A stretch of 64,000 bases of DNA from an uncultured Planctomycetales bacterium (GCA_964645795.1 CAZYCL010000006.1:73939-137938); one strand, 5' to 3'; counted from the first letter of the stretch, positions 13,361 through 62,757 are shown. The notes: a model not told the origin generated them from the sequence alone. A program made the numbers and translations.

Positions 13361-13447
13361 CCACCAGTCACCGCGCCACCATGTCACCAGCCAAACGGGT
13401 GACTTGGTGACAAGTTCAATCTCATTCGCCGGGTGACTCGGTGACTC
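13361..13447. repeat. GTCACC/GGTGAC hexamer-block palindromic element (family G), copy 1
   Basis: CCACCAGTCACCGCGCCACCATGTCACC...GGGTGACTTGGTGAC...GGGTGACTCGGTGACTC, intergenic. Confidence 0.7.
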
Positions 13448-13467
13448 TGAATTGTCATTCTAATCAT

Positions 13468-14673
13468 ATGAAATATATTGTTATAGTGGGCGACGGCATG
13501 GCGGATTACCCTGTGGCTGAATTGGGCGGCCGTACTCCGCTGGAGGCGGCGCGCACCCCGAATATGGACCAGATAGTCCAGGGCGGGGTCCTGGGAATAG
13601 CTAAGACCATTCCCGCCAAGATGACGCCCGCTTCGGATGTAGCCAATATTTCCATCCTCGGGTATAATCCTGCAGAGTATTATTCTGGCAGGGCGCCGCT
13701 GGAAGCGGCAAACCTGGGAGTAGAGCTTGAGGAAGAAGATGTCGCTTTTCGCTGCAACCTTATCACTGCATCGGGCGATACGCTGCTTGATTACAGCGCC
13801 GGCCACATCCAGTCCAAAGAAGCGGCGACGCTGATAAATTGCATTGACGAGAACCTCGGCACCGATAGGATAAAATTCTATCCCGGCGTAAGCTACCGCC
13901 ACCTGATGGTCGTAAAGGGCGGCGCCAGGGAAGGATTGGACAGCCTTGAATGCAGGCCTCCTCACGATATTGCCGGCCAGAACATTTCGAAGAATTTTCC
14001 TAAGGGCCGCAACGCCGAAGTGCTTATTAAATTGATGGAAAATTCGCGCCCCATATTGGAATCGCAGGAGCTAAATCTGGTGCGCGTTGACCTCAAGGAA
14101 AACCCCGCCAACATGATCTGGCTTTGGGGGCAGGGCAGGAAACCCCGGATGCCTTCTTTTTACGATAAGTACGGCGTTACAGGCAGCGTAATTTCAGCCG
14201 TTGACCTTATCAAGGGGCTGGGCAGGGTGCTGGGGCTTGAGGTCATCAATGTGGAAGGCGCAACCGGTTATTACGATACCAACTATGCCGGCAAGGCAAA
14301 GGCCGCTATTGATTCGCTTGAAAACAATGATTTCGTTTTCGTGCACGTGGAGGCGCCTGATGAGGCCGGCCATAACGGCGACCTTCGGGAAAAGATCTCG
14401 GCTATTGAAAGGATAGACCAGTTTATCGTCTCGCAGGTGCTCAAGTCTTTTAAAGGCAGGCCGGATTTTCGTGTTATGCTGCTTCCCGACCACTGTACTC
14501 CTATTTCAGTAAGGACCCATACGTCTGATCCCGTGCCGTTTGCGATATGCGGCAGCGGTATTTCGGCGCGCGGGCTTTCTGGATACAATGAAAAGGAGGC
14601 CAAGAAATCCAGCCTTTACTTCGAAGAAGGCTGGCGACTGATGGATTATTTTATCAAAGGTTCGAATCCATGA
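13468..14673 (+). CDS. apgM: Cofactor-independent phosphoglycerate mutase, archaeal type
   Basis: IVIVGDGMAD, the metalloenzyme-superfamily motifs, and FVHVEAPDEAGH are present. The start was taken at the internal ATG at 13468. Confidence 0.8.
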   Translation: MKYIVIVGDGMADYPVAELGGRTPLEAARTPNMDQIVQGGVLGIAKTIPAKMTPASDVANISILGYNPAEYYSGRAPLEAANLGVELEEEDVAFRCNLITASGDTLLDYSAGHIQSKEAATLINCIDENLGTDRIKFYPGVSYRHLMVVKGGAREGLDSLECRPPHDIAGQNISKNFPKGRNAEVLIKLMENSRPILESQELNLVRVDLKENPANMIWLWGQGRKPRMPSFYDKYGVTGSVISAVDLIKGLGRVLGLEVINVEGATGYYDTNYAGKAKAAIDSLENNDFVFVHVEAPDEAGHNGDLREKISAIERIDQFIVSQVLKSFKGRPDFRVMLLPDHCTPISVRTHTSDPVPFAICGSGISARGLSGYNEKEAKKSSLYFEEGWRLMDYFIKGSNP

Positions 14674-16265
14674 GCTCGCTTTTTATTGTCATTCCCGCCA
14701 CCCTCTTGTTTGCCCTGGCCTATAGTTTTTTTGGCAGGCTCCTTGAACGCGTCTGGGAAGTCGATCCCAAAAAGGCCACGCCCGCCTACTCGAAGTTTGA
14801 CAGCGTCGATTACGTCCCGGCAAAAAATTGGCTCATCCTCTTCGGGCATCATTTTTCTTCCATTGCCGGAGCCGGCCCGATTATCGGCCCGACTATCGCG
14901 GTCATGCTCTGGGGTTGGGGCCCGGCGCTTGCCTGGATACTGCTGGGTAGCATTTTTATAGGCGGCGTCCATGATTTCGGCTCGCTTATGAGCTCCGTAA
15001 GGGAAGGCGGTTCTTCCATTGCCGATATCGCTGAAGACGCAATATCGCGCAAGGCCAAGATAATATTCTCAATTTTCGTGTGGCTGGCCCTGGTCCTGGT
15101 GATCGCGGTCTTCGCCTATTTATGCGCCGATATTTTCGTAAAGAAACCCGCGGTAGTGCTGCCTTCGACCGGCATAATCCCGGTAGCGATGCTTGTCGGC
15201 TGGATGCTTTATAACCTGAGAGCCGGAATCGTTACGGCAACCGCCATAGGGCTTGTTTGCCTTGCCGGGCTGCTGGTGGCAGGCAATTATTTTTCTTTTA
15301 ACCTTAGTTTGCACTCCTGGTTGGCGCTATTGCTGGTCTATTGTTTTTTCGCTTCGGTGCTTCCGGTGAATATCCTTCTGCAGCCCCGGGATTACCTTTC
15401 AAGCTTCCTTTTGTTCTTTGGAGTGGGCTGCGGTTATATCGGGCTCTTTATTAGAAGGCCTGATATAAGCATGCCGGCGTATCACCATTGGTCCTCGCAG
15501 GAAGGTTATCTTTGGCCGATGCTTTTTGTGACCATCGCCTGCGGGGCTGTCTCAGGCTTCCACTCTCTGGTATCAAGCGGCACGACCTCCAAACAGCTGG
15601 CAAACCAGCGTTACGCCAAGAGGATCGGGTTCGGGGCGATGATGGTTGAGGGGATAGTGGCCCTGCTGGCCGTGATCGCCTGCGTCATCATGTTTAGGCC
15701 CGGTGAAGATTTTGCCGGCATCCTTAAGCGCTTAAGCCCGATCGGGGTCTTCGGCGCCGGTTACGGTGAGATTACGCAGGATGTGCTGTTCGGGCACGGC
15801 TCATTTATCGCCATTACCATACTTAACGCTTTTATCTTGACTACTTTGGATACAGCCACTAGAATATCTCGTTACCTTAGCGAAGAGTTGTTCGGCCTGA
15901 AAAACCGCTTTTTGTCTACGTTCCTGGTGGTGGCTGCAAGCGGTTTGCTGGCTTTCAGCGGCAAGTGGCAGCAGATCTGGCCGGCGTTCGGCGCCTCTAA
16001 CCAGCTGGTGGCAAGCCTTACGCTTTTTGTGCTGAGCTGCTGGCTTATGAGCCGCAAGAAAGGCTCGCTCTTCGTGCTTATCCCGGCATTTTTTATGCTG
16101 TTTACCACTATTGCCGCACTTGGCCTTCAGGCTAAAAGCTATATTTTGGGCAGGCATCCCGTGCTTTCTACGATCTGCGCGGTATTGATAATATTGGCTT
16201 GCGTTATGGTTTGGGAAGTCGCTTGCGCCTATAGAAGGAGATTGAGTAAATGTCAAAAAGCTTGA
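14670..16265 (+). CDS. cstA: Carbon starvation protein A family transporter
   Basis: It carries the CstA signature LFGHHFSSIAGAGPIIGP and many TM helices. Confidence 0.8.
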   Translation: MSSLFIVIPATLLFALAYSFFGRLLERVWEVDPKKATPAYSKFDSVDYVPAKNWLILFGHHFSSIAGAGPIIGPTIAVMLWGWGPALAWILLGSIFIGGVHDFGSLMSSVREGGSSIADIAEDAISRKAKIIFSIFVWLALVLVIAVFAYLCADIFVKKPAVVLPSTGIIPVAMLVGWMLYNLRAGIVTATAIGLVCLAGLLVAGNYFSFNLSLHSWLALLLVYCFFASVLPVNILLQPRDYLSSFLLFFGVGCGYIGLFIRRPDISMPAYHHWSSQEGYLWPMLFVTIACGAVSGFHSLVSSGTTSKQLANQRYAKRIGFGAMMVEGIVALLAVIACVIMFRPGEDFAGILKRLSPIGVFGAGYGEITQDVLFGHGSFIAITILNAFILTTLDTATRISRYLSEELFGLKNRFLSTFLVVAASGLLAFSGKWQQIWPAFGASNQLVASLTLFVLSCWLMSRKKGSLFVLIPAFFMLFTTIAALGLQAKSYILGRHPVLSTICAVLIILACVMVWEVACAYRRRLSKCQKA

Positions 16266-17470
16266 TCGTTCAGAAGTTCGGCGGCTCATCCGTCGCCTGC
16301 GCCGAACGCATTCAAAACGTCGCCAGAAGAGTGGCGGAATACAAGAAGAAAGGGCATGATCTTGTGGTAGTGGTTTCTGCCATGGGGGATACCACCGACG
16401 AGATAATCGAGCTGGCCAATAAGATAAATCCCGATCCGCCGGAAAGAGAGATGGACATGCTTCTGTCAACCGGCGAGCAGATATCAGTGGCGCTCCTGGC
16501 CATGGCCTTGCACCGACTGGGCCTGGAGGCGATCTCTTTTACCGGCGCGCAGGTCGGCATCATAACCGATACCAAGCACACCAGGGCCAGGATAATCAAG
16601 ATCACCGCTGACCGTATACGTCATGAGTTGGACAGAGGCAGGATCGTCATCGTTGCCGGCTTTCAGGGGATAAACGAGAACCACGATATCACAACTCTGG
16701 GCAGGGGCGGCTCGGATCTGACTGCCGTTGCCCTGGCCAAGGCCCTGGATGCCGATGAGTGCGAGATCTATACGGATGTTGAAGGAGTCTATACTACCGA
16801 TCCGCGCATCGAGCCGAGAGCCCATAAGATCGAGATGATGACCTTCGATGAGATGCTGGAGATGGCTTCACTTGGCGCCCAGGTGATGCAGGCGCGTTCT
16901 ATCGAGGTAGCCAAGAAGTATAACGTAGTAATACACGTGCGTTCGTCTTTTTCCGATAAAAAAGGGACTTTAATCGTCAAGGAGGCCAAGAAAATGGAAG
17001 ATGTGGTAGTCAGCGCCGTGACTTTAAGCAAGAGCGAAGCCAAGATCACCATATGCGGCGTTCCGGATAAGCCCGGCGTGGCCGCTCGCATATTCAAGGA
17101 GCTTTCCGCAAACGGCATAAACGTAGGCACTATCGTTCAAAACGTCAGCCATACACGCCAGACCGATATATCGTTTACGGTCCCCAAGTCCGATTTTAAT
17201 AAGGCCGTGCGTCTGATCAGGGCGTTGGCCAGGGATATGCAGGCAGGAGAGGTGCTGGAGGATCAGGATATCGCCCGGGTTTCCATCGTGGGGGTAGGCA
17301 TGGTCACCAATCCCGGCGTGGCCGCCCAGATGTTCGATGTCCTGGCCAAGCAAAAGATTAATATCGAGATGATCTCCACATCCGATATCAGCATCTCTTG
17401 TATAATCAAGAAGAAGTCGGCCGAAAAGGCAGTAAGGTCGCTGCACGATAAGTTCGGCCTGGCTAAATAG
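16250..17470 (+). CDS. lysC: Aspartate kinase with C-terminal ACT domains
   Basis: IVQKFGGSSV and VVVVSAMGDTTDELI are aspartokinase motifs. Confidence 0.85.
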   Translation: MSKSLIVQKFGGSSVACAERIQNVARRVAEYKKKGHDLVVVVSAMGDTTDEIIELANKINPDPPEREMDMLLSTGEQISVALLAMALHRLGLEAISFTGAQVGIITDTKHTRARIIKITADRIRHELDRGRIVIVAGFQGINENHDITTLGRGGSDLTAVALAKALDADECEIYTDVEGVYTTDPRIEPRAHKIEMMTFDEMLEMASLGAQVMQARSIEVAKKYNVVIHVRSSFSDKKGTLIVKEAKKMEDVVVSAVTLSKSEAKITICGVPDKPGVAARIFKELSANGINVGTIVQNVSHTRQTDISFTVPKSDFNKAVRLIRALARDMQAGEVLEDQDIARVSIVGVGMVTNPGVAAQMFDVLAKQKINIEMISTSDISISCIIKKKSAEKAVRSLHDKFGLAK

Positions 17471-17483
17471 AAGGAAGGCTCTG

Positions 17484-19052
17484 ATGGCAGAAATCAAACT
17501 TTACGATACGACGCTGCGGGACGGCTCGCAGGGAGAAGGCATTTCTTATTCGGTCACGGATAAGGTGCGTATTGCCCAGGAGCTGGATAAGTTCGGCATC
17601 CATTATATCGAAGGGGGCTGGCCCGGTTCAAATCCCAAGGATATGGAGTTTTTCCTGAGAATGGCCAGGATTAAGCTCAAAAATTCAATGCTTGCCGCCT
17701 TCAGCATGACCCGCAGGCCCAATATAAAGGCAAAGGACGATTCCAATATCGCCTCGCTTGTCAAGTCTCAGGCAAAAGTAATTGCGATTGTCGGCAAGAC
17801 CTGGGACCTGCACGTCACCGACGTCCTGAAGGTCAGCCTCGATGAAAACCTCAATATGATAAGGGACACCGTCAGCTTCCTTGCGGGAGAAGGCCTGACT
17901 GTTTTCTATGACGCCGAACATTTCTTTGATGCCTACAAGGCAAACCAAGATTATGCCTTAAAGACGATTGCTGCGGCCCAGGAGGCCGGGGCTAAAGCCG
18001 TTTGTCTTTGCGATACCAACGGCGGCAGCCTGACTTCGCAGGTCGCGCGCCTGACCAAAGAAGTGCGCCCGCTGATAAAAGGCATACTCGGTATTCATTG
18101 CCATAACGATGCGGGTTTAGCCGTAGCCAATTCCCTGGCCGCGGTCGAGGCAGGGGCGGATATGGTCCAGGGTACGATCAACGGTTACGGAGAAAGGTGC
18201 GGCAACGCCGACCTTATACCGATCATCGCCAATCTCAAGCTGAAGATGGGCCTTGATTGCGTAAGCGGCGAAGGCCTGAAGAACCTTACAAAGCTCTCGC
18301 ACTTTGTCAGCGAAATTAGCAATATGAGGCAGAGAAACGACCAGCCTTATACCGGCTCATCCGCTTTCGCCCATAAGGGCGGCATGCACATTAACGCCGT
18401 GATGAAGAACCCCCTGGCATATGAGCACGCTGACCCCTCGCTCGTAGGCAGCCATCGCCGGTTCCTTATGTCGGAGCTGGGCGGTAAGACCGGGATCCTG
18501 CTTCGGGCAAAGGACATGGAGTTGGACCTTAGCAAGGATGACCCCCAGACAAAAAAGATCCTTAAGCTGATCCAGGATCTGGAGCATAAAGGTTATCATT
18601 TCGAGGCCGCGGAAGCTTCCCTGGAGCTGCTGATGAAGCGCGCGCTTAAGAAGTACCGCGATTTCTTCGAGCTTGAAGGTTTCCGCGTGGTCATAGAGAA
18701 GCAGTCAAAGAAGAAGATTACCTCCGAGGCGATCATCAAGGTCAAGGTAAAGGGCGCCAAGGAGCATACCGCCGCTGAGGGTGACGGCCCGGTCAACGCT
18801 TTGGATAACGCCCTGCGTAAAGCCTTAAAAGATTTTTATCCCACGCTTTCTAAAATGCATCTCTCTGATTTCAAGGTACGCGTGCTCGATGAGAAGTCCG
18901 GGACCGCGGCCAAGGTGCGCGTATTGATACAATCCCAGGACGAGTCCGACAGCTGGAGCACTATCGGGGTCCACGAGAATATAATCGAAGCCTCCTGGCA
19001 GGCTTTGGTTGACAGCGTGGAGTATAAGCTCCTGAAGGATAAAACCAAATAA
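17484..19052 (+). CDS. cimA: (R)-citramalate synthase / 2-isopropylmalate synthase family (LeuA/CimA)
   Basis: It has the LYDTTLRDGSQ HMGL-like N-terminus, the HCHND motif, and a C-terminal LeuA-dimer domain. At 522 aa it suits CimA. Confidence 0.7.
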   Translation: MAEIKLYDTTLRDGSQGEGISYSVTDKVRIAQELDKFGIHYIEGGWPGSNPKDMEFFLRMARIKLKNSMLAAFSMTRRPNIKAKDDSNIASLVKSQAKVIAIVGKTWDLHVTDVLKVSLDENLNMIRDTVSFLAGEGLTVFYDAEHFFDAYKANQDYALKTIAAAQEAGAKAVCLCDTNGGSLTSQVARLTKEVRPLIKGILGIHCHNDAGLAVANSLAAVEAGADMVQGTINGYGERCGNADLIPIIANLKLKMGLDCVSGEGLKNLTKLSHFVSEISNMRQRNDQPYTGSSAFAHKGGMHINAVMKNPLAYEHADPSLVGSHRRFLMSELGGKTGILLRAKDMELDLSKDDPQTKKILKLIQDLEHKGYHFEAAEASLELLMKRALKKYRDFFELEGFRVVIEKQSKKKITSEAIIKVKVKGAKEHTAAEGDGPVNALDNALRKALKDFYPTLSKMHLSDFKVRVLDEKSGTAAKVRVLIQSQDESDSWSTIGVHENIIEASWQALVDSVEYKLLKDKTK

Positions 19053-19059
19053 CCCTCTG

Positions 19060-21750
19060 ATGATCGAAATACCCAGTCGCTATAATCCCCACGAAACCGA
19101 GGATAAATGGTATAAGTTTTGGGAAGAGAACGGATTGTTTGCCGCAAAGAGCAATCCTTCCAAGAAGCCTTATTGCATCGTTATCCCCCCGCCCAACGTC
19201 ACCGGCATCCTGCATATGGGCCATGCCCTGAACAATACTATCCAGGATATACTTATCCGCTACCACCGCATGAAGGGCCGGGAGTCGCTCTGGATGCCCG
19301 GCACCGACCACGCCGGCATCGCCACTCAGAATGTGGTAGAGAAGAAGCTTGCCAGGGAGGGGATTAAGCGCCAGGACCTGGGCAGGGAAAAGTTCATCGA
19401 AAAGGTCTGGGAGTGGAGAGAGGAGTACGGCTCGACCATCATCCGCCAGCTCAAGAAGCTCGCAGCCTCCTGCGACTGGCCGCGGCTGCGCTTTACCATG
19501 GATGAGGATTATTCCAATGCGGTTATCGAGGTATTCAGCCGTCTTTATGAAAAAGGCCTTATCTATCGCGGCAGCTACATAATTAATTGGTGCCCGCGCT
19601 GTCAGACCGCGCTTTCTGACGAAGAGGCCCCGCATCAGGAAATGCAGGGCAGCCTTTATTACTTAAGATACCCCCTTAAAGATGTCACCAGGTCACCGGG
19701 TCACCAGGTCACCGGTCAGGAACATGTTGTTGTGGCGACAACTCGGCCTGAGACTATGCTCGGCGATACGGCGGTGGCGGTAAACCCTAAAGATAAAAGG
19801 TACAAAAAGCTCATCGGCAAAACTCTGATCTTGCCTTTGGTAAACAGAGAGATAAAAGTAATCGCTGATTCCGCGGTTGACATGAAGTTCGCAACCGGTG
19901 CGGTCAAGGTCACCCCCGCCCATGACCCCAATGATTATGCCATGGGTAAAAAGCATAACCTGGATTTCGTCAATGTCATGCAGCCGGATGGCCGCATGAA
20001 CGAGTCAGCAGGCGAGTATAAGGATATGGACCGGTTCCAGGCCCGCAAGCTCATCGTAGAACATTTAAAAGAGAAGGGGCTATTGGAGAAGATCGAGCCG
20101 CACGCGCTTTCCGCCGGCCACTGTTACCGCTGCCATACGATAATCGAGCCTTACCTTTCCAAACAGTGGTTTGTGAAGATGAAACCGCTGGCAAAAGAGG
20201 CTATTGATGTCGTCAAGACCGGCAGGATCAAGTTCCACCCTAAGCGCTGGACCAAGGTTTATCTTAACTGGATGGAGAATATCCAGGACTGGTGTATATC
20301 GCGCCAGATCTGGTGGGGCCATCGCATACCGGTCTACTACTGCAGGAACTGCGGCCAAGAGAAGTGTATCGTTTCCAAGGCCAGGCCCGAGAAGTGCCCT
20401 GATTGCAGCTCTGTTGATATTTATCAGGATGAGGATGTCCTGGATACCTGGTTTTCTTCATGGCTTTGGCCGTTTGCGACTTTTTACTGGCCGGATGACC
20501 CAAATAAGGAGGATCTGAAGTATTTTTATCCTACTTCAGTGTTAGTTACTGCTCCTGAAATCATATTCTTTTGGGTGGCGCGCATGATCATGTCGGGCTT
20601 AGAGTTCATGGGCGATATACCCTTTAAGGATGTTTATATCCACGGCACGGTGCGGGATGCCGAAGGCAAGAAGATGTCCAAGTCCCTGGGAAACAGCATC
20701 GACCCGCTTGAGATCATCAAAGAGTACGGCTGCGACGCCCTGAGGTTCAGCTTGATTTCTATTACAGCCCAGGGGCAGGATGTATTCCTGGCTAAGGAGA
20801 GGTTTGAGCAGGGCAGGAACTTTGCCAACAAGCTCTGGAATGCCTCGCGTTTCATACTCATGAACCTGGAAGATGAAGATTGCGGCAAGCGGGATTTGTG
20901 CGAGTTCTTTAAAAAGGAAGACCTGAGCCTGGTCAACCGTTGGATCTTGAGCAGGTTCTACTCGACCCTCAAAGACGTCAATAAGGAGCTCGATTCATAC
21001 CGTTTCAACGAGGCGGCCAATACCAGATATAGTTTTTTCTGGCATGAGTTTTGCGATTGGTACATAGAGATGGTTAAATCCGATATCAAGGATGCGCATA
21101 ATCAGACTGTGGCGTACAAGCTCCTGGAGAATTCGATAAGGATGCTGCATCCGTTTATGCCGTTCATCACCGAGGAGCTTTGGCAGAAAATTCAAGTCAC
21201 CAAGTCACCAAGTCACCAAGTCAGCAGTATTATGGCGGAGAGTTGGCCGCATGTTCAGGAGAATATGATCGATAAAAAGACCGAAACATTGATGAACTCT
21301 GTATTCGAGATCATCACCGCGATAAGAAATTTGCGCGCAGAGCTGGAGATCCCGCTACAGGATAAAGTGGAAATGGTCCTGTGCGTGCCGGGCAGGGAGA
21401 AGTCAAAGTTGATCGGCGGGCTCAGCCAACAGATAGCGGATCTCGCGGGGTTAAAAGGATTGTCTTTGAAGCCGGCGTACGCTGCGGCTAAAGGCCAGAT
21501 CAGTTCGGTGCTGCGTGATATGCATATCGTAATACCCGTATCCGGGATGAGCGAGCCCGCTAAATTCAGGCAGAAGATCATCGAAAGGACGGGGAGGCTG
21601 GCAGGTGAGATAGCGGTCAAGACGAAGATGCTGTCGAACCGCGATTTTGTTAAAAAAGCTCCCAAGGAGGTAGTGGAGAAAGAGAGGGCCAGGCTTTGCG
21701 AACTTAAGGATACCCTCAAAAAACTGGAGGCAGTCAAAGATGGAATCTAA
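19060..21750 (+). CDS. valS: Valine--tRNA ligase
   Basis: HMGH and KMSKS class I motifs and a C-terminal coiled coil. It contains two in-frame GTCACC-repeat insertions (19684-19720 and 21193-21224). Confidence 0.9.
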   Translation: MIEIPSRYNPHETEDKWYKFWEENGLFAAKSNPSKKPYCIVIPPPNVTGILHMGHALNNTIQDILIRYHRMKGRESLWMPGTDHAGIATQNVVEKKLAREGIKRQDLGREKFIEKVWEWREEYGSTIIRQLKKLAASCDWPRLRFTMDEDYSNAVIEVFSRLYEKGLIYRGSYIINWCPRCQTALSDEEAPHQEMQGSLYYLRYPLKDVTRSPGHQVTGQEHVVVATTRPETMLGDTAVAVNPKDKRYKKLIGKTLILPLVNREIKVIADSAVDMKFATGAVKVTPAHDPNDYAMGKKHNLDFVNVMQPDGRMNESAGEYKDMDRFQARKLIVEHLKEKGLLEKIEPHALSAGHCYRCHTIIEPYLSKQWFVKMKPLAKEAIDVVKTGRIKFHPKRWTKVYLNWMENIQDWCISRQIWWGHRIPVYYCRNCGQEKCIVSKARPEKCPDCSSVDIYQDEDVLDTWFSSWLWPFATFYWPDDPNKEDLKYFYPTSVLVTAPEIIFFWVARMIMSGLEFMGDIPFKDVYIHGTVRDAEGKKMSKSLGNSIDPLEIIKEYGCDALRFSLISITAQGQDVFLAKERFEQGRNFANKLWNASRFILMNLEDEDCGKRDLCEFFKKEDLSLVNRWILSRFYSTLKDVNKELDSYRFNEAANTRYSFFWHEFCDWYIEMVKSDIKDAHNQTVAYKLLENSIRMLHPFMPFITEELWQKIQVTKSPSHQVSSIMAESWPHVQENMIDKKTETLMNSVFEIITAIRNLRAELEIPLQDKVEMVLCVPGREKSKLIGGLSQQIADLAGLKGLSLKPAYAAAKGQISSVLRDMHIVIPVSGMSEPAKFRQKIIERTGRLAGEIAVKTKMLSNRDFVKKAPKEVVEKERARLCELKDTLKKLEAVKDGI
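19684..19720. repeat. Tandem octamer repeat GTCACCAG/GTCACCGG x4, in frame inside valS (encodes VTRSPGHQVTGQ)
   Basis: Read directly from the sequence. Confidence 0.8.
21193..21224. repeat. Tandem octamer repeat CAAGTCAC x3.5, in frame inside valS (encodes QVTKSPSHQVSS)
   Basis: Read directly from the sequence. Confidence 0.8.
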
Positions 21751-27510: not shown

Positions 27511-27514
27511 TTAT

Positions 27515-27556
27515 TTGGGGACGGTTCCGGGGACAGGTCCCAGAACCGTCCCCAAA
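27515..27556. repeat. 41-nt palindrome TTGGGGACGGTTCCGGGGAC-AGGTCCCAGAACCGTCCCCAA (family P), copy 1
   Basis: Read directly. It lies 20 nt upstream of the groES -35. Confidence 0.8.
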
Positions 27557-27573
27557 TTTTTTAAAAAAATTAC

Positions 27574-29723: not shown

Positions 29724-29762
29724 AGGGCGCTCCTTTTGTAAAAGAAAGGAGCGCCTTTTTTT
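29724..29762 (+). terminator. Rho-independent terminator after groEL (GGCGCTCCTTTT...AAAGGAGCGCC plus T7)
   Basis: A stem-loop followed by a T-run. Confidence 0.75.
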
Positions 29763-34912: not shown

Positions 34913-34930
34913 TCCGATAAAAAATAGAAA

Positions 34931-34994
34931 TGGTCACCACGTCACCAAGTCACCACGTCACCGGTTTAACGTGTGACCTGGTGGCTTGGTGACC
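34931..34994. repeat. GTCACC/GGTGAC palindromic element (family G), copy 2
   Basis: GGTCACCACGTCACCAAGTCACCACGTCACCGGTTTAACGTGTGACCTGGTGGCTTGGTGACCG. The left arm is identical to copy 3. Confidence 0.8.
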
Positions 34995-49306: not shown

Positions 49307-49347
49307 TTGGGGACGGTTCTGGGGACAGGTCCCAGAACCGTCCCCAA
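49307..49347. repeat. 41-nt palindrome TTGGGGACGGTTCTGGGGAC-AGGTCCCAGAACCGTCCCCAA (family P), copy 2
   Basis: Read directly, between recO and panE. Confidence 0.85.
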
Positions 49348-50308: not shown

Positions 50309-51154
50309 ATGAGACTAAGACCCAGAATCAATGCGAAAAAGGCGCTTGTTTTTGTAATTGTGGCCGCTTGTGTTGTAGTTCTGGATTACTATTTTGTTTA
50401 CAATAAACCCGGTTCTGCGTTCGTAGCCGGACCCCCGAAAGCTTCTTTGCCGCAGCAGACAGGCAATCTTTCCATGAAGGAGGCTTTTGACGCGTTGAAG
50501 GCGCGCAGGGACCGCGACGCCCTGGCCCTTGCCGAGGCTGCCTTGATAAGCGAGCCTTCAAACCTTGATGCCATGTGCGTGAAGGCCGAGGTCTTAAGAA
50601 GGATGCGCAGGTATAATGAGGCAGAGGTCATCCTTACCCAGGTATTGAATAAAGACCCCGGCCGCTGCTCTGCCATTATAAGCTCTGCTTATATAAGGTA
50701 TAAGTACGCTGAGTTTGATAAGGCCCTGGAGCTTTTAAAGGCAGTGGTAGAGGGAGGGGCCTGCGATAAGGAGAACCTTGCTTTGGCCTACGCTACAATG
50801 GGGGCGGTTAATAGCAAACAGGTGGGTAACACCCTGTTATTGGGCAAACTCTACCATGTCAAGGCGATGAAAGAGTATTTCGCTAAAGCCAAGGACCTGG
50901 CGCCGGAGCTTGCGGAGACCAGGGTGGGGCTCGGTAGTTTTTATATGTTCGCCCCGTTTTTCCTGGGAGGCAACCTGGAGAAGGCGATAGTTGAGCTTGA
51001 GTATGCGGTCAAGCTCGCGCCGGATTTTGCAACTGCCAACGCCAGGCTTGCCCAGGCTTACAAAAAAAAGAAGGATACGGCCAAGTATCAGTTTTATCTC
51101 TTGCGCGCCAAAAGCCTGGACCCCGAGAACGAAGTCGTTAAAGAGATCGAATAG
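50309..51154 (+). CDS. Membrane-anchored tetratricopeptide repeat protein
   Basis: An N-terminal TM helix, then TPR-like helical repeats. Confidence 0.6.
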   Translation: MRLRPRINAKKALVFVIVAACVVVLDYYFVYNKPGSAFVAGPPKASLPQQTGNLSMKEAFDALKARRDRDALALAEAALISEPSNLDAMCVKAEVLRRMRRYNEAEVILTQVLNKDPGRCSAIISSAYIRYKYAEFDKALELLKAVVEGGACDKENLALAYATMGAVNSKQVGNTLLLGKLYHVKAMKEYFAKAKDLAPELAETRVGLGSFYMFAPFFLGGNLEKAIVELEYAVKLAPDFATANARLAQAYKKKKDTAKYQFYLLRAKSLDPENEVVKEIE

Positions 51155-51155
51155 G

Positions 51156-52865
51156 ATGGTAAACGCAGAAGTCGCCCGGATCTTCCGTTCCATAGCGCAG
51201 ATACTTCAAATTAAGGATGACAACCGCTTCCGCATCGCCGCCTACGAACGAGCCGCGCAGAACATCGAATCTCTCTCCGAGCCGCTGGAAACCATAAAAG
51301 ACGAGAACAGGCTGGGCGATATCCCGGGCATAGGCAAGGACCTCTCTTCCAAGATCTCCGAATTTATCGATTCCGGCAGCATCCGTTACTACGACGAGCT
51401 AAAACTTACCATACCTGCCGGATTGCTTGACCTGCTGGAGGTTTCCTCGATAGGCCCAAAGACCGCAAAGCTCCTTTTTGAAAAACTGGGCATCGGGGAT
51501 GTCCCGGGGCTTGAAAAGGCCATTAAATCAGGAAAGCTCAAAGGCCTGCCGGGGATAAAGCAAAAGTCCATAGAGAATATGCTTAAAGGCATAGAGCTTT
51601 ATTTCAGGCGCAGGCAGAGGATGACCCTGGCGCAGGCAGAGGAGGTTGCGGCGGAGTTTATTTCAAGGCTTTCCCGCTGCGGCGGCGTAAAACAGATCTG
51701 CGTTGCGGGAAGCTTGCGGCGCCGTACCGAGACCGTAGGCGATATAGATATACTTGTTGCTTCAGGCCATCCCGCTAAAGTCATCGATGCTTTTGTCAGG
51801 ATCGGCCAGGTAAAGGATATTCTGGCAAAAGGGAGCACAAAGGCTTCGGTGCGCACAAAAGACGGCGTGCAGCTGGACTGCCGCGTAGTCGGGAAATCGA
51901 TGTTTGGCGCGGCGCTCCTTTACTTTACCGGTTCCAAGCTTTTTAACATAAGGCTGCGCAAGCTCTCCCTAAGCCGGGGCTGCAAGCTCAACGAGTACGG
52001 TATCTTTAAGGGCAATAAGCTGCTTGCTTCTAAGACGGAAGAACAGATGTTGAAAGCCCTTAAGTTGCAGTATATCGAGCCGGAGTTAAGGGAGGATAAC
52101 GGCGAGATAGAGCTGGCTAAAAAAGGGCTGCTGCCCAAGCTTATTGAATCAAAGGACATAAAAGGCGACCTGCATGTTCATTCCGTCTGGTCCGACGGCT
52201 CCAACACCGTAGAAGAGCTGGCAGGCGGTGCGCGCAGGTTCGGTTACTCTTATATTGCCGTAACCGACCATTCTCAAAGCTTAAGGATCGCCAATGGGCT
52301 AAGCGTCCAGGACCTGGAAAATAAGCGCAAAGAGATTGAAGGGCTCAATAAGAGGCTAAAAGGGATCAGGGTGCTTTATGGTACCGAGGCGGACATCGAC
52401 CCCGAAGGGAATATTGATTACGATGACGGGGTCTTAAGGGATTTTGATATTGTCATCGCGGCCATCCACTCCGGTTTCAAGCAGGATAGGGGCAAGCTTA
52501 CCAGGCGCATCATTGAGGCCTGCAAAAATAAATACGTGCATATCATCGCCCATCCCACGGGCAGGCTCTGGGGGGTAAGGGATTCTTATGAGTTGGATTT
52601 CAGGGAAGTTTTAAAAGCCGCCAGCGACACTAATACCGCCCTTGAGATCAATTCTTTTCCCAGCCGCCTGGACCTCAATGACCTGCACAGCCGCCAGGCA
52701 AAGCAGGCGGGGGTAAGGCTGGCAATAAATACGGATTCCCACAGCGTTGACCAGTTACCCGGGATAAGGTTCGGCATATCAGTTGCCCGCCGCGGATGGG
52801 TCGAAGCATCGGGTGTCATCAATACTCTTTCCTGCGACCAACTGCTAAAAATAATCAAAAAGTAG
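51156..52865 (+). CDS. polX: DNA polymerase/3'-5' exonuclease PolX (family X polymerase plus PHP domain)
   Basis: HhH/pol-beta-like N-terminus (GIGKDLSSKI), nucleotidyltransferase GSLRRR...GDIDIL, and the C-terminal PHP motifs (HVHSVWSDG). Confidence 0.85.
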   Translation: MVNAEVARIFRSIAQILQIKDDNRFRIAAYERAAQNIESLSEPLETIKDENRLGDIPGIGKDLSSKISEFIDSGSIRYYDELKLTIPAGLLDLLEVSSIGPKTAKLLFEKLGIGDVPGLEKAIKSGKLKGLPGIKQKSIENMLKGIELYFRRRQRMTLAQAEEVAAEFISRLSRCGGVKQICVAGSLRRRTETVGDIDILVASGHPAKVIDAFVRIGQVKDILAKGSTKASVRTKDGVQLDCRVVGKSMFGAALLYFTGSKLFNIRLRKLSLSRGCKLNEYGIFKGNKLLASKTEEQMLKALKLQYIEPELREDNGEIELAKKGLLPKLIESKDIKGDLHVHSVWSDGSNTVEELAGGARRFGYSYIAVTDHSQSLRIANGLSVQDLENKRKEIEGLNKRLKGIRVLYGTEADIDPEGNIDYDDGVLRDFDIVIAAIHSGFKQDRGKLTRRIIEACKNKYVHIIAHPTGRLWGVRDSYELDFREVLKAASDTNTALEINSFPSRLDLNDLHSRQAKQAGVRLAINTDSHSVDQLPGIRFGISVARRGWVEASGVINTLSCDQLLKIIKK

Positions 52866-52917
52866 TGGGGACGGTTCTGGGGACGGTTCTGGGACCTGTC
52901 CCCAGAACCGTCCCCAA
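52866..52917. repeat. Family P palindrome, copy 3, with an internal duplication of GGGGACGGTTCT
   Basis: Read directly, between polX and apbE. Confidence 0.85.
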
Positions 52918-56815: not shown

Positions 56816-57661
56816 ATGGACGCAAGAAAGAATACCATAAGAGATCTGATTTCCCTTAAAGGAAAGCGCAAGCTCACGATGCTGACCGCTTATGATTATC
56901 CCTTTGCCTCACTCGTTGACCGCTCCGGGATCGACATGATACTCGTCGGAGATTCCCTGGCAAACGTGGTGCTGGGCCTGGATTCCACGAATCAGGTCGG
57001 GATGGACCAGATGCTGCATCATGCCAAGGCAGTTACCCGCGCCGTAAAAAAGGCGCTGGTGATAGGGGATATGCCTTTTGAATCGTATCAGCTAAATCCG
57101 CAGGACGCCGTTAAAAACGCCGCTAAATTCATTCGCGAAGCCGGTTGTGATGCGGTCAAGGTTGAATGGTTTGACGAATGTCTTAAGGTCTGCGCCGGCA
57201 TCGTCAAGGAAGATATTCCTGTTATGGGCCATATCGGCCTGACCCCCCAGACCGCGGATAAGCTCGGAGGCTTCAAAGTCCAGGGCAAAGAAGCGGATGC
57301 TGCCCGCAGGCTCATCAATGAGGCCGTGGCCTTGGAGGATGTCGGGTGTTTTTCGCTGGTGCTGGAGTGCGTGCCGGACAAGCTCGCCGAGATCATTACC
57401 GCCAAGCTTAAGATCCCGACTATCGGCATCGGCGCCGGCCCTTATTGTGACGGGCAGGTGCTGGTGATCCACGATATGCTGGGGTTATTTGACCGTTACA
57501 AGCCGAAGTTCGTCAAACAGTATGCGGATATATCCGCTGCGATCCTAAAGGCCCTGGCTGATTATAAAGACGATGTCATCGGGATGCGGTTCCCGGCCAA
57601 AGAAAACAGCTTTGCCATAAAGGAAGAAGAGCTCCAAAAGATCAAAAAGGACAATGCATGA
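56816..57661 (+). CDS. panB: 3-methyl-2-oxobutanoate hydroxymethyltransferase
   Basis: TMLTAYDYPFA and ILVGDSLANVVLG are KPHMT motifs. Confidence 0.85.
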   Translation: MDARKNTIRDLISLKGKRKLTMLTAYDYPFASLVDRSGIDMILVGDSLANVVLGLDSTNQVGMDQMLHHAKAVTRAVKKALVIGDMPFESYQLNPQDAVKNAAKFIREAGCDAVKVEWFDECLKVCAGIVKEDIPVMGHIGLTPQTADKLGGFKVQGKEADAARRLINEAVALEDVGCFSLVLECVPDKLAEIITAKLKIPTIGIGAGPYCDGQVLVIHDMLGLFDRYKPKFVKQYADISAAILKALADYKDDVIGMRFPAKENSFAIKEEELQKIKKDNA

Positions 57662-58392
57662 GGGGTGCGGCCCGTAAGCCTAAAGGCGGTTTCTTGACTT
57701 ATGCGTATGCATCGGTACTCCTGGCACTGGCTTTGTTATTCATAGCGAAGTTTGCCGGACCGTCGCTGCTCAGGCTTTACATCCAGGGCGGCCTGGGGGA
57801 TTGCTCGAAAATGACGGTTTTTTGCAAACTCCCCTGGGAGAGCTTCGATAACGCCGCGCCTGACGGGGAGTTTATCGATAGCTGTATCGATTACGACTTC
57901 CCCAAGATGTCGGCTCTCGCCCCAAGGGGTTTTTCCGTCGTACACGAGCGGATAACCAGGGTCCCCCATAAGAAAAAGGTTGACCGCAAAGACGACTCCA
58001 TAATATATTTTTATCACGAAGGGCCGGATTTCTTCGTCAACCTTTTCCCCCAGGTCAAGAAAACCGGGATCAGCGATGATTACAAATTCATAGAAAGGGT
58101 GATGAATGCCCGTTTTAACGAAATCTCCACCATTGCCGACGCCTTTTACGTCATAGTCAAGGGGGTATTTACCCCTGACCTGGGCAAGGACCAGGCGCAG
58201 ATCCGGATGGCGCGCTTTGCCATAGCCGGCAAAAAAGGGTTTATCAATTACAGCCTTGGCACCGAAGCCAACTTTTTTGATTGCAACGTGATTGACAAAA
58301 GCGGGTACTTTAAGGTTTATATAAAGGATAAAGGCAGGCAGCTGGACATCAACAAGGTCTTATTCATTGTTTCTACCCTCAGAGGAAAATAG
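57658..58392 (+). CDS. Hypothetical membrane-anchored protein
   Basis: An N-terminal TM helix and no recognisable domain. It is translationally coupled to panB. Confidence 0.35.
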   Translation: MRGAARKPKGGFLTYAYASVLLALALLFIAKFAGPSLLRLYIQGGLGDCSKMTVFCKLPWESFDNAAPDGEFIDSCIDYDFPKMSALAPRGFSVVHERITRVPHKKKVDRKDDSIIYFYHEGPDFFVNLFPQVKKTGISDDYKFIERVMNARFNEISTIADAFYVIVKGVFTPDLGKDQAQIRMARFAIAGKKGFINYSLGTEANFFDCNVIDKSGYFKVYIKDKGRQLDINKVLFIVSTLRGK

Positions 58393-58446
58393 GCATCCGG
58401 GAATTCCCTTGACTTTTAATTTGTCTTGCGCTAATAATAAAAGGCT

Positions 58447-59766
58447 ATGGAACAGGGCTTGATAGAAAAGATCGTATCGCTTTCCAAGCGAAGGGGTTTT
58501 GTCTTCCAGTCATCCGAGATCTACGGGGGTTTAAGCAATACCTGGGATTACGGCCCCTACGGGGTAGAGCTTAAGAACAATATAAAGCGGGCATGGTGGA
58601 GGTCGGTGGTCTATGAACGCGACGATGTATACGGGCTTGATGCGGCGATCCTCATGCATCCCAGGGTCTGGGAGGCCTCCGGTCATGTCGAGAACTTCTT
58701 TGACCTGAAGAGCGACTGCAGATCGTGCAAGAAACGTTTCAAAACCGAGGACCTGAAGGGCGCCGATAAGTGCCCGGAGTGCGGCGGCGAGCTTACGGAA
58801 TCAAGGCCTTTTAACCTGATGTTTAAAACCTACCAGGGCCCGGTAGAAGACGCCGCTAATGCGATATATCTGCGGCCCGAGACCGCCCAAGGGATGTTCG
58901 TGAACTTCGCCAATATCCTGGATTCGCGCCATCCCAAGCTTCCTTTCGGCATGGCCCAGCTGGGAAAATCATTTCGCAACGAAATAACCCCCGGTAATTT
59001 TACCTTCCGCACCAGGGAGTTCGAGCAGATGGAGGTAGAGTATTTCGTCAGGCCCGCTGACGCCGAGAGCGCGCACAGGGAATGGGTGCAGGCGCGCTAT
59101 CAGTGGTACCTGCGCCTGGGTATGGACAAGGATAAGCTGCGACTGAGGGACCACGCTAAGGACGAATTGGCGCATTATGCCAAGGCCTGCACCGACATCG
59201 AATACAACTTTTCATTCTCGGGCTCCGGAGCCGGATGGGGTGAGCTGGAAGGCATAGCCAATAGAGGCGATTACGACCTAAGGCAGCATGCGGAGTCCAG
59301 CGGGCGCGACCTGGTTTTTTTCGACGACGCGACCAAGGAAAAATTCTTCCCCTACATTATCGAGCCTTCGGGCGGAGTGGACAGGAGCGTTCTGGCTTTT
59401 ATGATGAACGCCTACTGCGAAGAGAAGGTAAAGGATGAAACGCGGGTAGTCATGAAGTTCCATCCCGACCTGGCTCCGGTCAAGGCCGCGGTGCTTCCTT
59501 TGCTGAGGAACAGGCCGCAGCTGGTAGAGATGGCGCGCAAGATCGCCGCCGACCTTAAAACGTTTACCGTGGCGGTCTACGATGATACCGGCGCCATCGG
59601 CAAGCTCTACCGTCGGCAGGATGAGGTGGGCACGCTTTTCTGCATCACCGTTGATGTGCAGTCGCTTGAAGACAAGCAGGTGACCGTCCGCCACCGGGAT
59701 TCGATGCTCCAGGACCGTATCAGCGTTGACAGATTAAAGGAATATTTGTTAGAAAAGCTTAATTAA
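58447..59766 (+). CDS. glyQS: Glycine--tRNA ligase (homodimeric alpha2 type)
   Basis: Class II GlyRS N-terminus (IYGGLSNTWDYGPYG), a zinc-ribbon insertion, and an anticodon-binding C-terminus. Confidence 0.85.
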   Translation: MEQGLIEKIVSLSKRRGFVFQSSEIYGGLSNTWDYGPYGVELKNNIKRAWWRSVVYERDDVYGLDAAILMHPRVWEASGHVENFFDLKSDCRSCKKRFKTEDLKGADKCPECGGELTESRPFNLMFKTYQGPVEDAANAIYLRPETAQGMFVNFANILDSRHPKLPFGMAQLGKSFRNEITPGNFTFRTREFEQMEVEYFVRPADAESAHREWVQARYQWYLRLGMDKDKLRLRDHAKDELAHYAKACTDIEYNFSFSGSGAGWGELEGIANRGDYDLRQHAESSGRDLVFFDDATKEKFFPYIIEPSGGVDRSVLAFMMNAYCEEKVKDETRVVMKFHPDLAPVKAAVLPLLRNRPQLVEMARKIAADLKTFTVAVYDDTGAIGKLYRRQDEVGTLFCITVDVQSLEDKQVTVRHRDSMLQDRISVDRLKEYLLEKLN

Positions 59767-59915
59767 CACCTGTTGCCAAGAAGATAGATGTTTGTTGCCT
59801 GTTAACGTGTCAGGGGTTACGTGTTTTTCGCTAGAACACGCAACACGAAACGCGTAACTCAAAACAAAGATTTCTTTTTCGCGACAGCAACACGAAAAGG
59901 AGGGTTTTAAAGGAA

Positions 59916-62666
59916 ATGGCAAAGAAATATGTTTACTCCTTCGGCGGAGGAAAGGCCGACGGAAACGAAAGCATGAAAAATCTGCTGGGCGGCAAAGGCG
60001 CCAATCTTGCAGAGATGGCAGGGCACAAGGCGTTGAGGCTTCCCGTTCCGCCCGGATTCACCATAACCACCGAAGTCTGCACTTATTACTACCAGAATAA
60101 AAAGAAGTATCCCGCATCCCTTAAGGCTGAGGTGATCTCTGCCCTTAAGAAGGTGGAAAAGCTTATGGGAAGGGATTTCGGCGATCCGGAAAATCCTCTG
60201 CTGGTATCCGTCAGGAGCGGAGCGCGTAAATCCATGCCCGGGATGATGGAGACGGTATTAAACGTCGGGCTTACCGCCAAGACCATCCCCGGCCTGATAA
60301 AGCAAAGCGGCGGAAATGAGCGGTTCGTTTATGATGCATACCGTCGCCTGATCATGATGTTCTCCGACGTAGTCATGGAGAAGGCCGCCGGCATCGAGCC
60401 CAAAGACGATCAGGGCATACGCAGGCAGCTTGAGCGTATTATGGATGGGCTGAAGAAATCAAAAGGCTACAAGAGCGATACGGACATGAACACCGATGAC
60501 CTCAAAAAGCTCTGCGCCGATTTCAAGGTAAAGATAAAAGAAGTTTTAGGCAGGGAGTTTCCTGATGAGCCGATCGAGCAGCTCTGGGGAGGGATCGGTG
60601 CGGTATTCGCGTCATGGAACGGCAAACGCGCCATCTCCTACCGCCGCATCGAAAACATCCCGGATGAGTGGGGCACCGCGGTAACCGTACAGACTATGGT
60701 CTTTGGCAATATGGGTGATGATTGCGCCACGGGAGTGGCATTTTCGCGTAACCCCGGTAACGGCGAAAACAAGTTTTACGGCGAGTACCTGGTCAATGCC
60801 CAGGGTGAAGATGTCGTCGCCGGCATACGCACGCCGGCACCGGTCAACGAAGACTCAAAGTCCGAGCACAACAAAGGCCTGACCAGCCTCCAGATGTTGA
60901 TGCCCAAGCTCTACAAAGAGCTTTATGAATACCGCAATCGCCTTGAGAAACACTATCACGATATGCAGGATATAGAGTTCACCATTGAAAAGGGCAGGCT
61001 TTTTATGCTGCAGTGCCGCGTGGGAAAGAGGAATGGCCCTGCGGCAGTGCGCATGGCAGTAGAGATGGTTGGCGAAAAACTGACCGACGCCGCCACGGCC
61101 GTGATGCGCGTTACTCCTGCTCAGCTTGATGAGCTGCTGCATCCGGTGGTAGACCCTAAGGCAGAGGCTGCCAATAAGCCCCTGGTCAAAGGTCTTCCTG
61201 CCGGTCCGGGAGGGGCCTGCGGCCAGATAGTCTTTTCCGCTCATGACGCTGTAGAGTGGAGGAAGAACGGCAAAAAGGTCATACTCGTGCGCGAAGAGAC
61301 CAACCCTGAAGATGTCGAGGGTATGCGCGCGGCTGAAGCCATACTTACCGCCCGCGGCGGCATGACTTCGCATGCGGCGCTGGTTGCCCGCGGCTGGGGA
61401 AAATGCTGTATCGTAGGCTGCGGCGCGCTCCACATTGATTACGGCAAAAAAGAGATGCACGTTGAAGGCGCCAAGGTTTTCAGGGAAGGCGATTGGATAA
61501 CCCTTAACGGCACCAAGGGCGCGGTTTATGAAGGCCAGCTTCCCATGATGGATGCCGGCGAAGAGAATAAGATACTCAATGATTTTCTTAAGATGTGCAG
61601 CCGCATAAGAAAGCTGGGCATCCGCACCAACGCCGATACTCCGGAAGATGCCAGGAAAGCCAGGCAGTTCGGAGCCGAAGGCATCGGTTTATTCAGGACC
61701 GAGCATATGTTCTACGGCAAAGGCTCTGACCAGCCGCTGTTCTTATTAAGGAAGATGATCGTCTCTAAGACCCTTGATGAGCGAAGAAGCGCATTGGATG
61801 AGCTTTTCCCGTTCGTAAAGCGGGATGTCAAAGGCACGCTTGAGGCGATGGACGGATTCCCGGTGGTCTTTCGTCTGCTGGATCCTCCATTACATGAGTT
61901 CGTCCCGCGCGAGCACTCAAAGCTCGAGGAGCTGGCAAAGGACCTGAATATCTCGATGGATGAGCTAAAGGCTCGCGCCGAAGGCCTGCATGAGTCAAAC
62001 CCCATGATGGGCCATCGCGGAGTGCGTCTCGGCGTCACTTATCCCGAGGTCAGCTCCATGCAGATCCGCGCCATATTTGAGGCCGCGGCAGAGCTGATCA
62101 AGGAAGGCAAGAAGCCGTATCCCGAGATAATGATACCGGTTGTCTGCGACGTAAAAGAGCTGGATGACCAATTGGAGCTGGCAAAGAAGGTTTACGCCGA
62201 AGTCCTGTCCAAATACGCCATCAAGGCCATAAAGCATATGTTCGGTACGATGATTGAGATTCCGCGTGCAGCCCTGACTGCAGGAAAACTGGCGAAGACC
62301 GCGCAGTTCTTTTCTTTCGGGACCAATGACCTTACCCAGATGACGTTCGGTTTCTCGCGCGACGACATCGGGGGTTTTGCTCCCGAATACCTGAAGAAGG
62401 GGATTCTTGCCGAAGACCCGTTCCAGTCGGTTGACCAGGAAGGGGTAGGGGAGCTCATTCAGATCGGTATCGCTCGCGGCCGCGCCACCAATAAGAAGCT
62501 GGAAGTGGGTATCTGCGGTGAACATGGCGGAGAGCCGAAGTCTGTAGAATTCTGCCATAAGGTAGGCATGGATTACGTCAGCTGTTCGCCTTTCCGCGTG
62601 CCGATCGCCAATCTTGCGGCAGCGCAGGCGGTGCTCAAGAATTGCAAGTGTGCTAAGAAAAAATAG
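59916..62666 (+). CDS. ppdK: Pyruvate, phosphate dikinase
   Basis: ATP-grasp N-terminus (GGKGANLAEM), a phospho-His domain (GGMTSHAALVARGWG), and a PEP-utilising TIM barrel. Confidence 0.9.
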   Translation: MAKKYVYSFGGGKADGNESMKNLLGGKGANLAEMAGHKALRLPVPPGFTITTEVCTYYYQNKKKYPASLKAEVISALKKVEKLMGRDFGDPENPLLVSVRSGARKSMPGMMETVLNVGLTAKTIPGLIKQSGGNERFVYDAYRRLIMMFSDVVMEKAAGIEPKDDQGIRRQLERIMDGLKKSKGYKSDTDMNTDDLKKLCADFKVKIKEVLGREFPDEPIEQLWGGIGAVFASWNGKRAISYRRIENIPDEWGTAVTVQTMVFGNMGDDCATGVAFSRNPGNGENKFYGEYLVNAQGEDVVAGIRTPAPVNEDSKSEHNKGLTSLQMLMPKLYKELYEYRNRLEKHYHDMQDIEFTIEKGRLFMLQCRVGKRNGPAAVRMAVEMVGEKLTDAATAVMRVTPAQLDELLHPVVDPKAEAANKPLVKGLPAGPGGACGQIVFSAHDAVEWRKNGKKVILVREETNPEDVEGMRAAEAILTARGGMTSHAALVARGWGKCCIVGCGALHIDYGKKEMHVEGAKVFREGDWITLNGTKGAVYEGQLPMMDAGEENKILNDFLKMCSRIRKLGIRTNADTPEDARKARQFGAEGIGLFRTEHMFYGKGSDQPLFLLRKMIVSKTLDERRSALDELFPFVKRDVKGTLEAMDGFPVVFRLLDPPLHEFVPREHSKLEELAKDLNISMDELKARAEGLHESNPMMGHRGVRLGVTYPEVSSMQIRAIFEAAAELIKEGKKPYPEIMIPVVCDVKELDDQLELAKKVYAEVLSKYAIKAIKHMFGTMIEIPRAALTAGKLAKTAQFFSFGTNDLTQMTFGFSRDDIGGFAPEYLKKGILAEDPFQSVDQEGVGELIQIGIARGRATNKKLEVGICGEHGGEPKSVEFCHKVGMDYVSCSPFRVPIANLAAAQAVLKNCKCAKKK

Positions 62667-62685
62667 AAGTAACTCGTTGCTATTT

Positions 62686-62757
62686 GTCACCACGTCACCA
62701 AGTCACCACGTCACCGGTTTTAACGGGTGAGGTGGTGACAGGTGATCCGGTGACCGG
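62686..62757. repeat. GTCACC/GGTGAC palindromic element (family G), copy 3
   Basis: GTCACCACGTCACCAAGTCACCACGTCACCGGTTTTAACGGGTGAGGTGGTGACAGGTGATCCGGTGACCGG. Confidence 0.8.

Follow-up and report, generated by a model that had tools for sequence, protein, structure and literature searches.

The 64-kb stretch analysed here (64,000 nucleotides, CAZYCL010000006.1:73939-137938; hereafter the window) contains five loci of one repeat family, whose building block is the tandem octamer GTCACCAN, that is, GTCACC plus two nucleotides, and not a bare hexamer. Three of the loci are two-armed intergenic hairpins (copies A, B and C), and two are one-armed arrays inside valS (Table 1). Together they probably represent a lineage-specific simple-sequence repeat (SSR) family of Candidatus Omnitrophota that is similar to short tandemly repeated repetitive (STRR) sequences and to repetitive extragenic palindromes (REPs), with in-frame insertions resembling those of Rickettsia palindromic elements (RPEs). 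The hairpins are intergenic, yet the arrays lie in frame in the essential valS gene, which points to microsatellite-type ‘junk’ behaviour and speaks less for a site of regulation or for a mobile element of the classical kind. Judged by sequence relatedness, the window belongs to an Omnitrophota genome: the nearest non-self matches to its valyl-tRNA synthetase (ValRS) and DnaE are 73–79% identical, and every named match is from Omnitrophota/Omnitrophica. The source genome is represented by the window alone, and the copy census covers these 64 kb; the comparison loci include syntenic stretches of seven other Omnitrophota populations, and all such loci are referred to below by L numbers.

GTCACC occurs 56 times in the window, compared with 15.6 expected (maximum 32 in 100 dinucleotide-preserving shuffles, 0 of 100 reaching 56), and the two-unit pattern GTCACCNNGTCACC, allowing up to two mismatches, occurs 25 times compared with 2.6 expected. 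Tandem Repeats Finder (TRF) detects five arrays of period 8 with 3.8–4.5 copies each, the head-to-tail arrangement of a 6–9-nt unit that defines STRR/SSR sequences. The isolated GTCACC word was discarded as the signal: it is unremarkable under a maximal-order Markov model (rank 149), and the signal lies in the tandem arrangement. Comparison of units shows that the hexamer and the A that follows it are strongly conserved and that the eighth base is variable; of the 28 spacer dinucleotides scored in the window and five related loci, 26 read AA, AG or AC. Spacers also follow a 16-nt super-period (AG/GG/AG/GG and AC/AA/AC). A preliminary description of this stretch had reported intergenic palindromes built from GTCACC and GGTGAC hexamer blocks. 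Its three elements (13361-13447, 34931-34994 and 62686-62757) stand at those coordinates and the motif is indeed in excess, but the hexamer unit has to be replaced by the octamer, the two in-frame arrays in valS rule out an intergenic definition of the family, and an 8-nt simple-sequence repeat evolving in concert had escaped notice.

The evolution of the family can be followed in valS, an 896-aa open reading frame (ORF; 19060-21750) that holds both one-armed arrays. Orthologues of the 21193 array occupy this position in seven genomes and comprise one to four units, with four in several lineages and one in L181, so that this site displays the variation in unit number and unit sequence that is typical of STRR/SSR loci. 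Variant units are homogeneous within an array and differ between lineages, which is the pattern produced by concerted evolution through slippage or conversion; the aligned sequences thus show variant units apparently spreading within the array, and the 16-nt spacer super-periodicity fits this behaviour. Orthologous arrays persist among genomes whose proteins share only ~70% identity. When the window is compared with L121, third-codon positions across the 21193 array are identical at 11 of 11 sites, against a background identity of 0.40 (61/154) at four-fold sites of the same gene. The window and L122 both carry an array at the 19684 site, which is empty in L121, L123, L182 and L183, and a third ValRS loop site is filled in L183 by three copies of GTCACCAG (7022-7045). 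All orthologous valS arrays are in frame, coding sequences gain a net multiple of three bases, and there is no sign of on/off frameshifting.

Both valS inserts fall in gaps with respect to the solved Thermus thermophilus ValRS structure (1GAX). In an AlphaFold2 model of the enzyme, whose N-terminal half is poor (mean pLDDT 54), insert 1 lies in the loop between strands E200-205 and E222-227, and insert 2 in a coil between helices with a local dip in confidence. At the 21193 site, a 7-aa linker is found in most of 120 ValRS homologues; in many lineages 6–8 extra residues are present there, with 8-aa (or 7-aa) periodicity and built from different units. Unlike ValRS, DnaE homologues are nearly all 1144–1146 aa long: insertion tolerance is gene-specific. 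A few Omnitrophota DnaE proteins (P0170, P0182 and P0240) reach ~1602 aa and contain intein/LAGLIDADG-type Pfam domains (PF14528 and PF14890). A GQSP and/or SGTVP-type motif is present in 26 of the 120 Omnitrophota ValRS sequences, at up to four loop sites (carriers include P0002, P0003, P0055, P0077, P0080 and P0103, as well as site 3 of L181). The full GQSP-x-GTVP insert resembles a translated palindrome (GGACAGTCCCC..GGGGACTGTCC) and constitutes an in-frame hairpin family apart from the GTCACC one; palindromic GQSP-x-GTVP inserts also occupy the 21193 site in other lineages.

Insertion of the octamer is not restricted to valS. In-frame copies occur elsewhere in Omnitrophota in pheS (twice) and pheT (L058 777-3999, a locus with three members of the octamer family within 8 kb) and in hisS (L178 14835-14867), and in-frame insertion into unrelated protein-coding genes is a defining property of RPEs. 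The period of 8 runs through all three reading frames. Enumeration of spacers and frames revealed that (GGTGACNN)3 contains a stop codon, always TGA, in 48 of 48 spacer-by-frame combinations, and (GTCACCNN)3 in 2 of 48. Because the GGTGAC orientation carries this obligatory in-frame TGA, coding copies are one-armed and sense-oriented, and hairpins and antisense arrays are intergenic only; the predicted sense-only, one-armed pattern agrees with the copies in valS, pheS, pheT and hisS. The same constraint means that octamer coding copies cannot be palindromic. One-armed arrays fold no better than their shuffles (z from −1.5 to +0.4), and the idea that self-folding of the quasi-palindromic unit (GTCAC/GTGAC, GGTNACC) promotes array expansion was rejected on these values.

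All GTCAC-type coding arrays that were encountered lie in aminoacyl-tRNA synthetase (aaRS) genes, and arrays of other units were found in quinolinate phosphoribosyltransferase (QRPTase, nadC) and GuaA. Two heptamer arrays, AGGTGTT and CCTAACA, lie in frame in the QRPTase gene of one relative and are mutual reverse complements ~160 nt apart (L122 13477-13512 and 13670-13702, equivalent to L178 395-430 and 588-620). The unit GTCACCA includes ACCA, like a tRNA 3′ end. An exclusive association with aaRS genes is not established, given the other units in QRPTase and GuaA and a sampling of coding arrays that was centred on ValRS; since other-unit arrays occur in those two genes, the aaRS link may reflect insertion tolerance and sampling. 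A protein-database search with the translated array gave seven weak matches to tiny ORFs and was uninformative on host families.

The three intergenic elements each lie directly after a stop codon and ahead of the next gene, in spacers between co-directional genes on the plus strand: LemA and ApgM for copy A (the apgM ATG is at 13468), GuaA and DnaE for copy B, and PPDK and the sigma-70 factor for copy C, which bears out the placement upstream of apgM, dnaE and a sigma-factor gene that had been described. All three fold into long interrupted hairpins, as RNA or DNA and on either strand, with stems of roughly 25–30 bp, folding energies of −38 to −46 kcal/mol and z scores of about −3.2 to −6.2; folding had been suggested in the preliminary description. 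Left arms of three to four GTCACC units were given there; copy A is degenerate, with two of four left-arm hexamers intact and a right arm split by 19 nt. Likewise, the loop TTTAACG is exact in B alone, with TTTTAACG in C and CCAAACG in A. The identical 32-nt left arm of B and C was reproduced (32/32), and the right arms of these two copies are clearly different despite this identity. An 11-mer, AAAAAATAGAA, is common to B (34917-34927) and C (62658-62668) upstream of the left arm, 5 nt before it in B and 17 nt before it in C, where it contains the PPDK stop codon; it may belong to the copied element or reflect chance similarity of AT-rich sequence.

Table 1. Anatomy of the octamer loci in the window and state of the valS 21193 site in relatives
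Feature	Start	End	Strand	Composition
Copy A left arm	13360	13390	+	GCCACCA GTCACCGC GCCACCAT GTCACCAG
Copy A inner right arm	13397	13411	+	GGGTGAC TTGGTGAC; pairs with the last two left-arm units
Copy A interruption	13412	13430	+	aagttcaatctcattcgcc
Copy A outer right arm	13431	13447	+	GGGTGAC TCGGTGAC TC; pairs with the first left-arm units
Copy B left arm	34933	34964	+	GTCACCAC GTCACCAA GTCACCAC GTCACCGG
Copy B loop	34965	34970	+	TTTAAC
Copy B right arm	34971	34994	+	GTGTGAC CTGGTGGC TTGGTGAC C; three degenerate units
Copy C left arm	62686	62717	+	as copy B left arm
Copy C loop	62718	62724	+	TTTTAAC
Copy C right arm	62725	62757	+	GGGTGAG GTGGTGAC AGGTGAT CCGGTGAC CGG
valS array 1	19684	19718	+	GTCACCAG GTCACCGG GTCACCAG GTCACCG GTCA; in frame, encodes VTRSPGHQVTG
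valS array 2	21193	21227	+	GTCACCAA three times, then GTCAGCAG; in frame, encodes VTKSPSHQVS
valS 21193 array, L121				GTCACCAG-GTCACCAA-GTCACCAG
valS 21193 array, L123				GTCACCAA-GTCAGGCG-GTCAGGCG-GTCACCAG
valS 21193 array, L122				GTCACAAA twice and more
valS 21193 array, L182				GTCACAAR four times
valS 21193 array, L183				AAGGAYAC four times; same array, register-shifted and diverged
valS 21193 site, L181				exactly one unit, CAG GTCACCAG TATAATG; encodes QVTSIM

Insertion-site polymorphism between related genomes, which the preliminary description had proposed as a check, is evident from presence and absence at the orthologous intergenic sites as well. In the window, the spacer between LemA and apgM contains element A and measures 115 nt; its counterparts in L121 and L181 have 8 and 12 nt, respectively, and the spacer between guaA and dnaE is 9 nt in L179, with no element. 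At the latter position, L178 (9887-10000) and L180 (2746-2835) carry hairpins of the same plan, a tandem arm, a loop and an inverted tandem arm, made of unrelated 7–8-nt units (AGTCTAT/ATAGAC and TAAGTTnT). This hairpin plan is general in the clade and the unit lineage-specific. Arrays of period 7/8 are common: TRF found ~35 in ~197 kb of Omnitrophota DNA, some between genes and others in frame within them, and their units are diverse.

The octamer family itself is present in several genomes of the phylum. A metagenome population of 39–40% GC has the exact 30-nt arm of B and C in a hairpin between secDF and mfd, and an Omnitrophota metagenome-assembled genome (MAG), L117, has a similar hairpin between two co-directional genes. 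A scan for (GTCACCNN)3GTCACC across a genome collection returned arrays in many phyla; among the matches listed, those of other phyla have TT, CT, CC or GC spacers, AA/AG/AC spacers account for ~5% (27/548), and an inverted partner lies nearby in ~14% (18/130). A single homologous family across phyla was considered and rejected, because (GTCACCNN)4 arrays elsewhere use TT/CT/CC/GC and not AA/AG/AC. As the spacers differ, the Omnitrophota GTCACCAN repeats are best regarded as a family of their own, distinct from the GTCACCYY type of other phyla, where a parallel STRR-like phenomenon is seen. Short tandem arrays are also present in cyanobacterial, Chloroflexota and Planctomycetota loci. A rough check of specificity in the IMG/VR viral collection gave 34 stretches with (GTCACCNN)3GTCACC arrays, compared with 4, 7 and 7 for three hexamers of the same composition.

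In the scheme favoured here, the family takes two forms, one-armed sense arrays of three to four units that are tolerated in loops of housekeeping enzymes, and two-armed intergenic hairpins. Arrays persist and keep their period by slipped-strand mispairing or intra-array conversion, and selection filters where they survive, through stop codons, reading frame and the tolerance of loops. New copies may arise by the copying of an existing array, B and C sharing arm, loop and spacer pattern, or alternatively by expansion from a single seed unit. When transcribed, the hairpins would at most be REP-like, adding structure to polycistronic mRNA, and in all likelihood they represent neutral or selfish DNA. 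A PolX with a PHP domain is encoded at 50991-52865 and also in the syntenic L178 and L180, and might, speculatively, be a candidate for slippage-prone repair synthesis.

Several points weigh against this scheme. Slippage accounts for the maintenance of arrays and not for their dispersal, and the occurrence of the octamer at three ValRS sites and in three other genes requires a copying or seeding mechanism. As one-armed arrays fold no better than shuffles, there is no structural reason for unusually high slippage. Simple neutral decay of a duplicated hairpin does not predict that B and C should have identical left arms and yet differ clearly in their right arms, and the 5–8-fold viral excess of GTCACC arrays hints at a sequence specificity beyond the model. 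An active, sequence-aware repeat-generating process in Omnitrophota, and perhaps in other phyla rich in 7–8-nt arrays, might take the place of passive slippage, a proposal that we regard as decidedly unlikely. Its machinery may be a polymerase or reverse transcriptase that adds repeats from a template, or a site-specific nickase combined with error-prone repair. If such a process existed, it would seed arrays and their inverted partners genome-wide, including in permissive aaRS loops, and would keep the DNA of arrays homogeneous even between deeply diverged lineages; the favoured GTCACC core and the recurrent insertion of different units into the same loop would then be footprints of the machinery.

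Mobility in trans offers another account of dispersal, in which the hairpins would be non-autonomous elements of the REPIN (paired inverted REPs) or miniature inverted-repeat transposable element (MITE) type, mobilized by a transposase gene product from another part of the genome, such as a Y1/REP-associated tyrosine transposase (RAYT) or an IS200-IS605-like enzyme, and the coding arrays would be half-element remnants. Paired inverted arms around a short loop, the build of REPINs (PMC3116915, PMC3337134), are present in A, B and C and recur in L117 and L125; B, C and the L124/L125 copy from an unrelated low-GC population share the arm, the AC/AA/AC spacers and the architecture; orthologous sites are empty in relatives; and spread to many sites and genes requires a copying mechanism. 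On the other hand, an alignment of five copies with their flanks revealed neither a target-site duplication nor conserved termini beyond the arms, and no GTAG-type 5′ head, the arms beginning with GTCACC. Pfam identifies housekeeping genes, four aaRS genes and the PolX among the ~50 ORFs of the window, and no transposase, Y1_Tnp or RAYT, which is a weak test, as a RAYT is usually single-copy. Arms made of tandem octamers are undescribed for REPs, and the coding copies are full arrays of three to four units in concerted evolution, unlike decayed half-elements. We therefore consider mobilization unlikely; of the REP/MITE-like character proposed in the preliminary description, a dispersed and polymorphic repeat family remains, stripped of target-site duplication, GTAG-type head and, within these 64 kb, the RAYT that it had suggested looking for.

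A role in expression, with the hairpins acting as terminators, attenuators or mRNA-stabilizing 3′ structures that tune apgM, dnaE and the sigma-factor gene, would suit their position in the gap that separates a stop codon from the following co-directional gene, the great stability of the predicted RNA hairpins, and the presence of a strong hairpin, differing in sequence, in the guaA–dnaE spacer of three of four genomes. However, no T-run follows A, B or C, and a terminator scan gave no terminator-like site there, whereas the clade does use ordinary Rho-independent terminators, as a stem and T-run after groEL in four genomes demonstrate (in the window at ~29725-29762, GGGCGCTCCTTTC...GGAGCGCC then T7, with equivalents in L122, L123 and L179). 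Some relatives have hairpin-free spacers of 8–12 nt, and covariation beyond sequence conservation is essentially nil, a comparison that is uninformative in that nearly all pairs are invariant and a single one is compensatory. Such a role is thus very unlikely. No canonical promoter was found at B or C, and promoter-like matches near A overlap the apgM start. Rfam at gathering scores recognizes only tRNAs in the window, and its E-value mode yields only miRNA-precursor noise (15–20 bits against cut-offs of 58–96), in keeping with the earlier statement that no known element family is recognizable. Highly improbable, finally, is an array bound by a protein that recognizes GTCACC/GGTGAC in DNA or RNA sequence-specifically, for instance a regulator or a nucleoid protein. 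Strong conservation of the hexamer plus A with a free eighth base, conservation of array DNA above the synonymous background, and the preference for GTCACC over control hexamers would all be expected of binding sites. Yet orthologous arrays drift to GTCACAAR, GAYACAAG and GTCAGGCG with the period kept, orthologous spacers are empty or filled with unrelated units, and 8 bp is probably too short a period for tandem sites on double-stranded DNA. The location of arrays inside the coding regions of valS, pheS, pheT and hisS also weakens the case for the protein-binding arrays that had been envisaged, or for regulatory ones serving apgM, dnaE and the sigma-factor gene.

The window holds other repeats as well. 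A second palindromic family, unrelated to the octamer, consists of the 12-mer TGGGGACGGTTC and its complement (27513-27557, 49307-49347 and 52866-52916), forming near-perfect hairpins of −42 to −47 kcal/mol; each arm of the 52866 copy comprises two units in tandem, and the copy at 27513, which has a T-run behind it, may serve as a terminator. In a cluster of tRNA genes (Thr, Tyr, Gly), tRNA-Gly (5094-5167) is closely preceded by a 29-nt inverted repeat (4963-5042) that is 76% complementary and has a 22-nt loop.

The closest parallel to a repeat family of the kind favoured here is provided by the STRR sequences of cyanobacteria and the 6–9-nt SSRs of bacteria, which share few-copy tandem arrays of 7–8 nt, lineage-specific units, and variation in length and sequence between relatives at the same intergenic site, with slippage as the proposed mechanism (PMC4692102). 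Their many dispersed copies may have a counterpart in the five octamer loci within these 64 kb and the three within 8 kb of L058. SSRs of 6–9 nt have rarely been studied, and an excess of heptamers has been attributed to polymerase slippage (PMC4692102); the literature searched contained neither a description of these octamers nor any account of repeats in Omnitrophota, 6–9-nt SSRs included. The Omnitrophota arrays differ in having a period of 8 instead of 7, in being often paired as inverted hairpin arms, and in lying in frame in essential genes, where they are kept across genomes with ~70% identical proteins. With REPs and REPINs they have in common the inverted doublet in short intergenic spacers, a long imperfect hairpin, near-identical copies and possible effects on mRNA structure; by contrast, their arms are tandem octamers and not a single REP of 20–35 nt with a GTAG-type head, two of the five window copies lie inside valS and not between genes, and no RAYT accompanies them in the window. 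Inverted arms are also a feature of MITEs, whose direct duplication at the borders is lacking, and no IS element is present in the window. RPEs are likewise repeats inserted in frame into housekeeping genes, where the encoded peptide is compatible with fold and function (PMC10969869), but they are palindromic, ~100–150 bp long and from a different phylum, whereas the octamer coding copies are direct arrays of 24–35 nt that show no significant fold and evolve as SSRs. Contingency loci, too, comprise slippage-prone short tandem units in or near genes; the present arrays, unlike these, are in frame in essential conserved genes, with four units in several lineages.

One octamer family thus both builds REP-like hairpins and enters essential genes in frame. 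It offers a natural system for the spread of short repeats, for the way in which selection on stop codons and reading frame decides their persistence, and for the tolerance of conserved enzymes, ValRS among them, to sequence ‘noise’. In practical terms, such arrays inflate apparent variation in protein length, can lead gene callers astray, and interrupt the short-read assembly of MAGs from candidate phyla.

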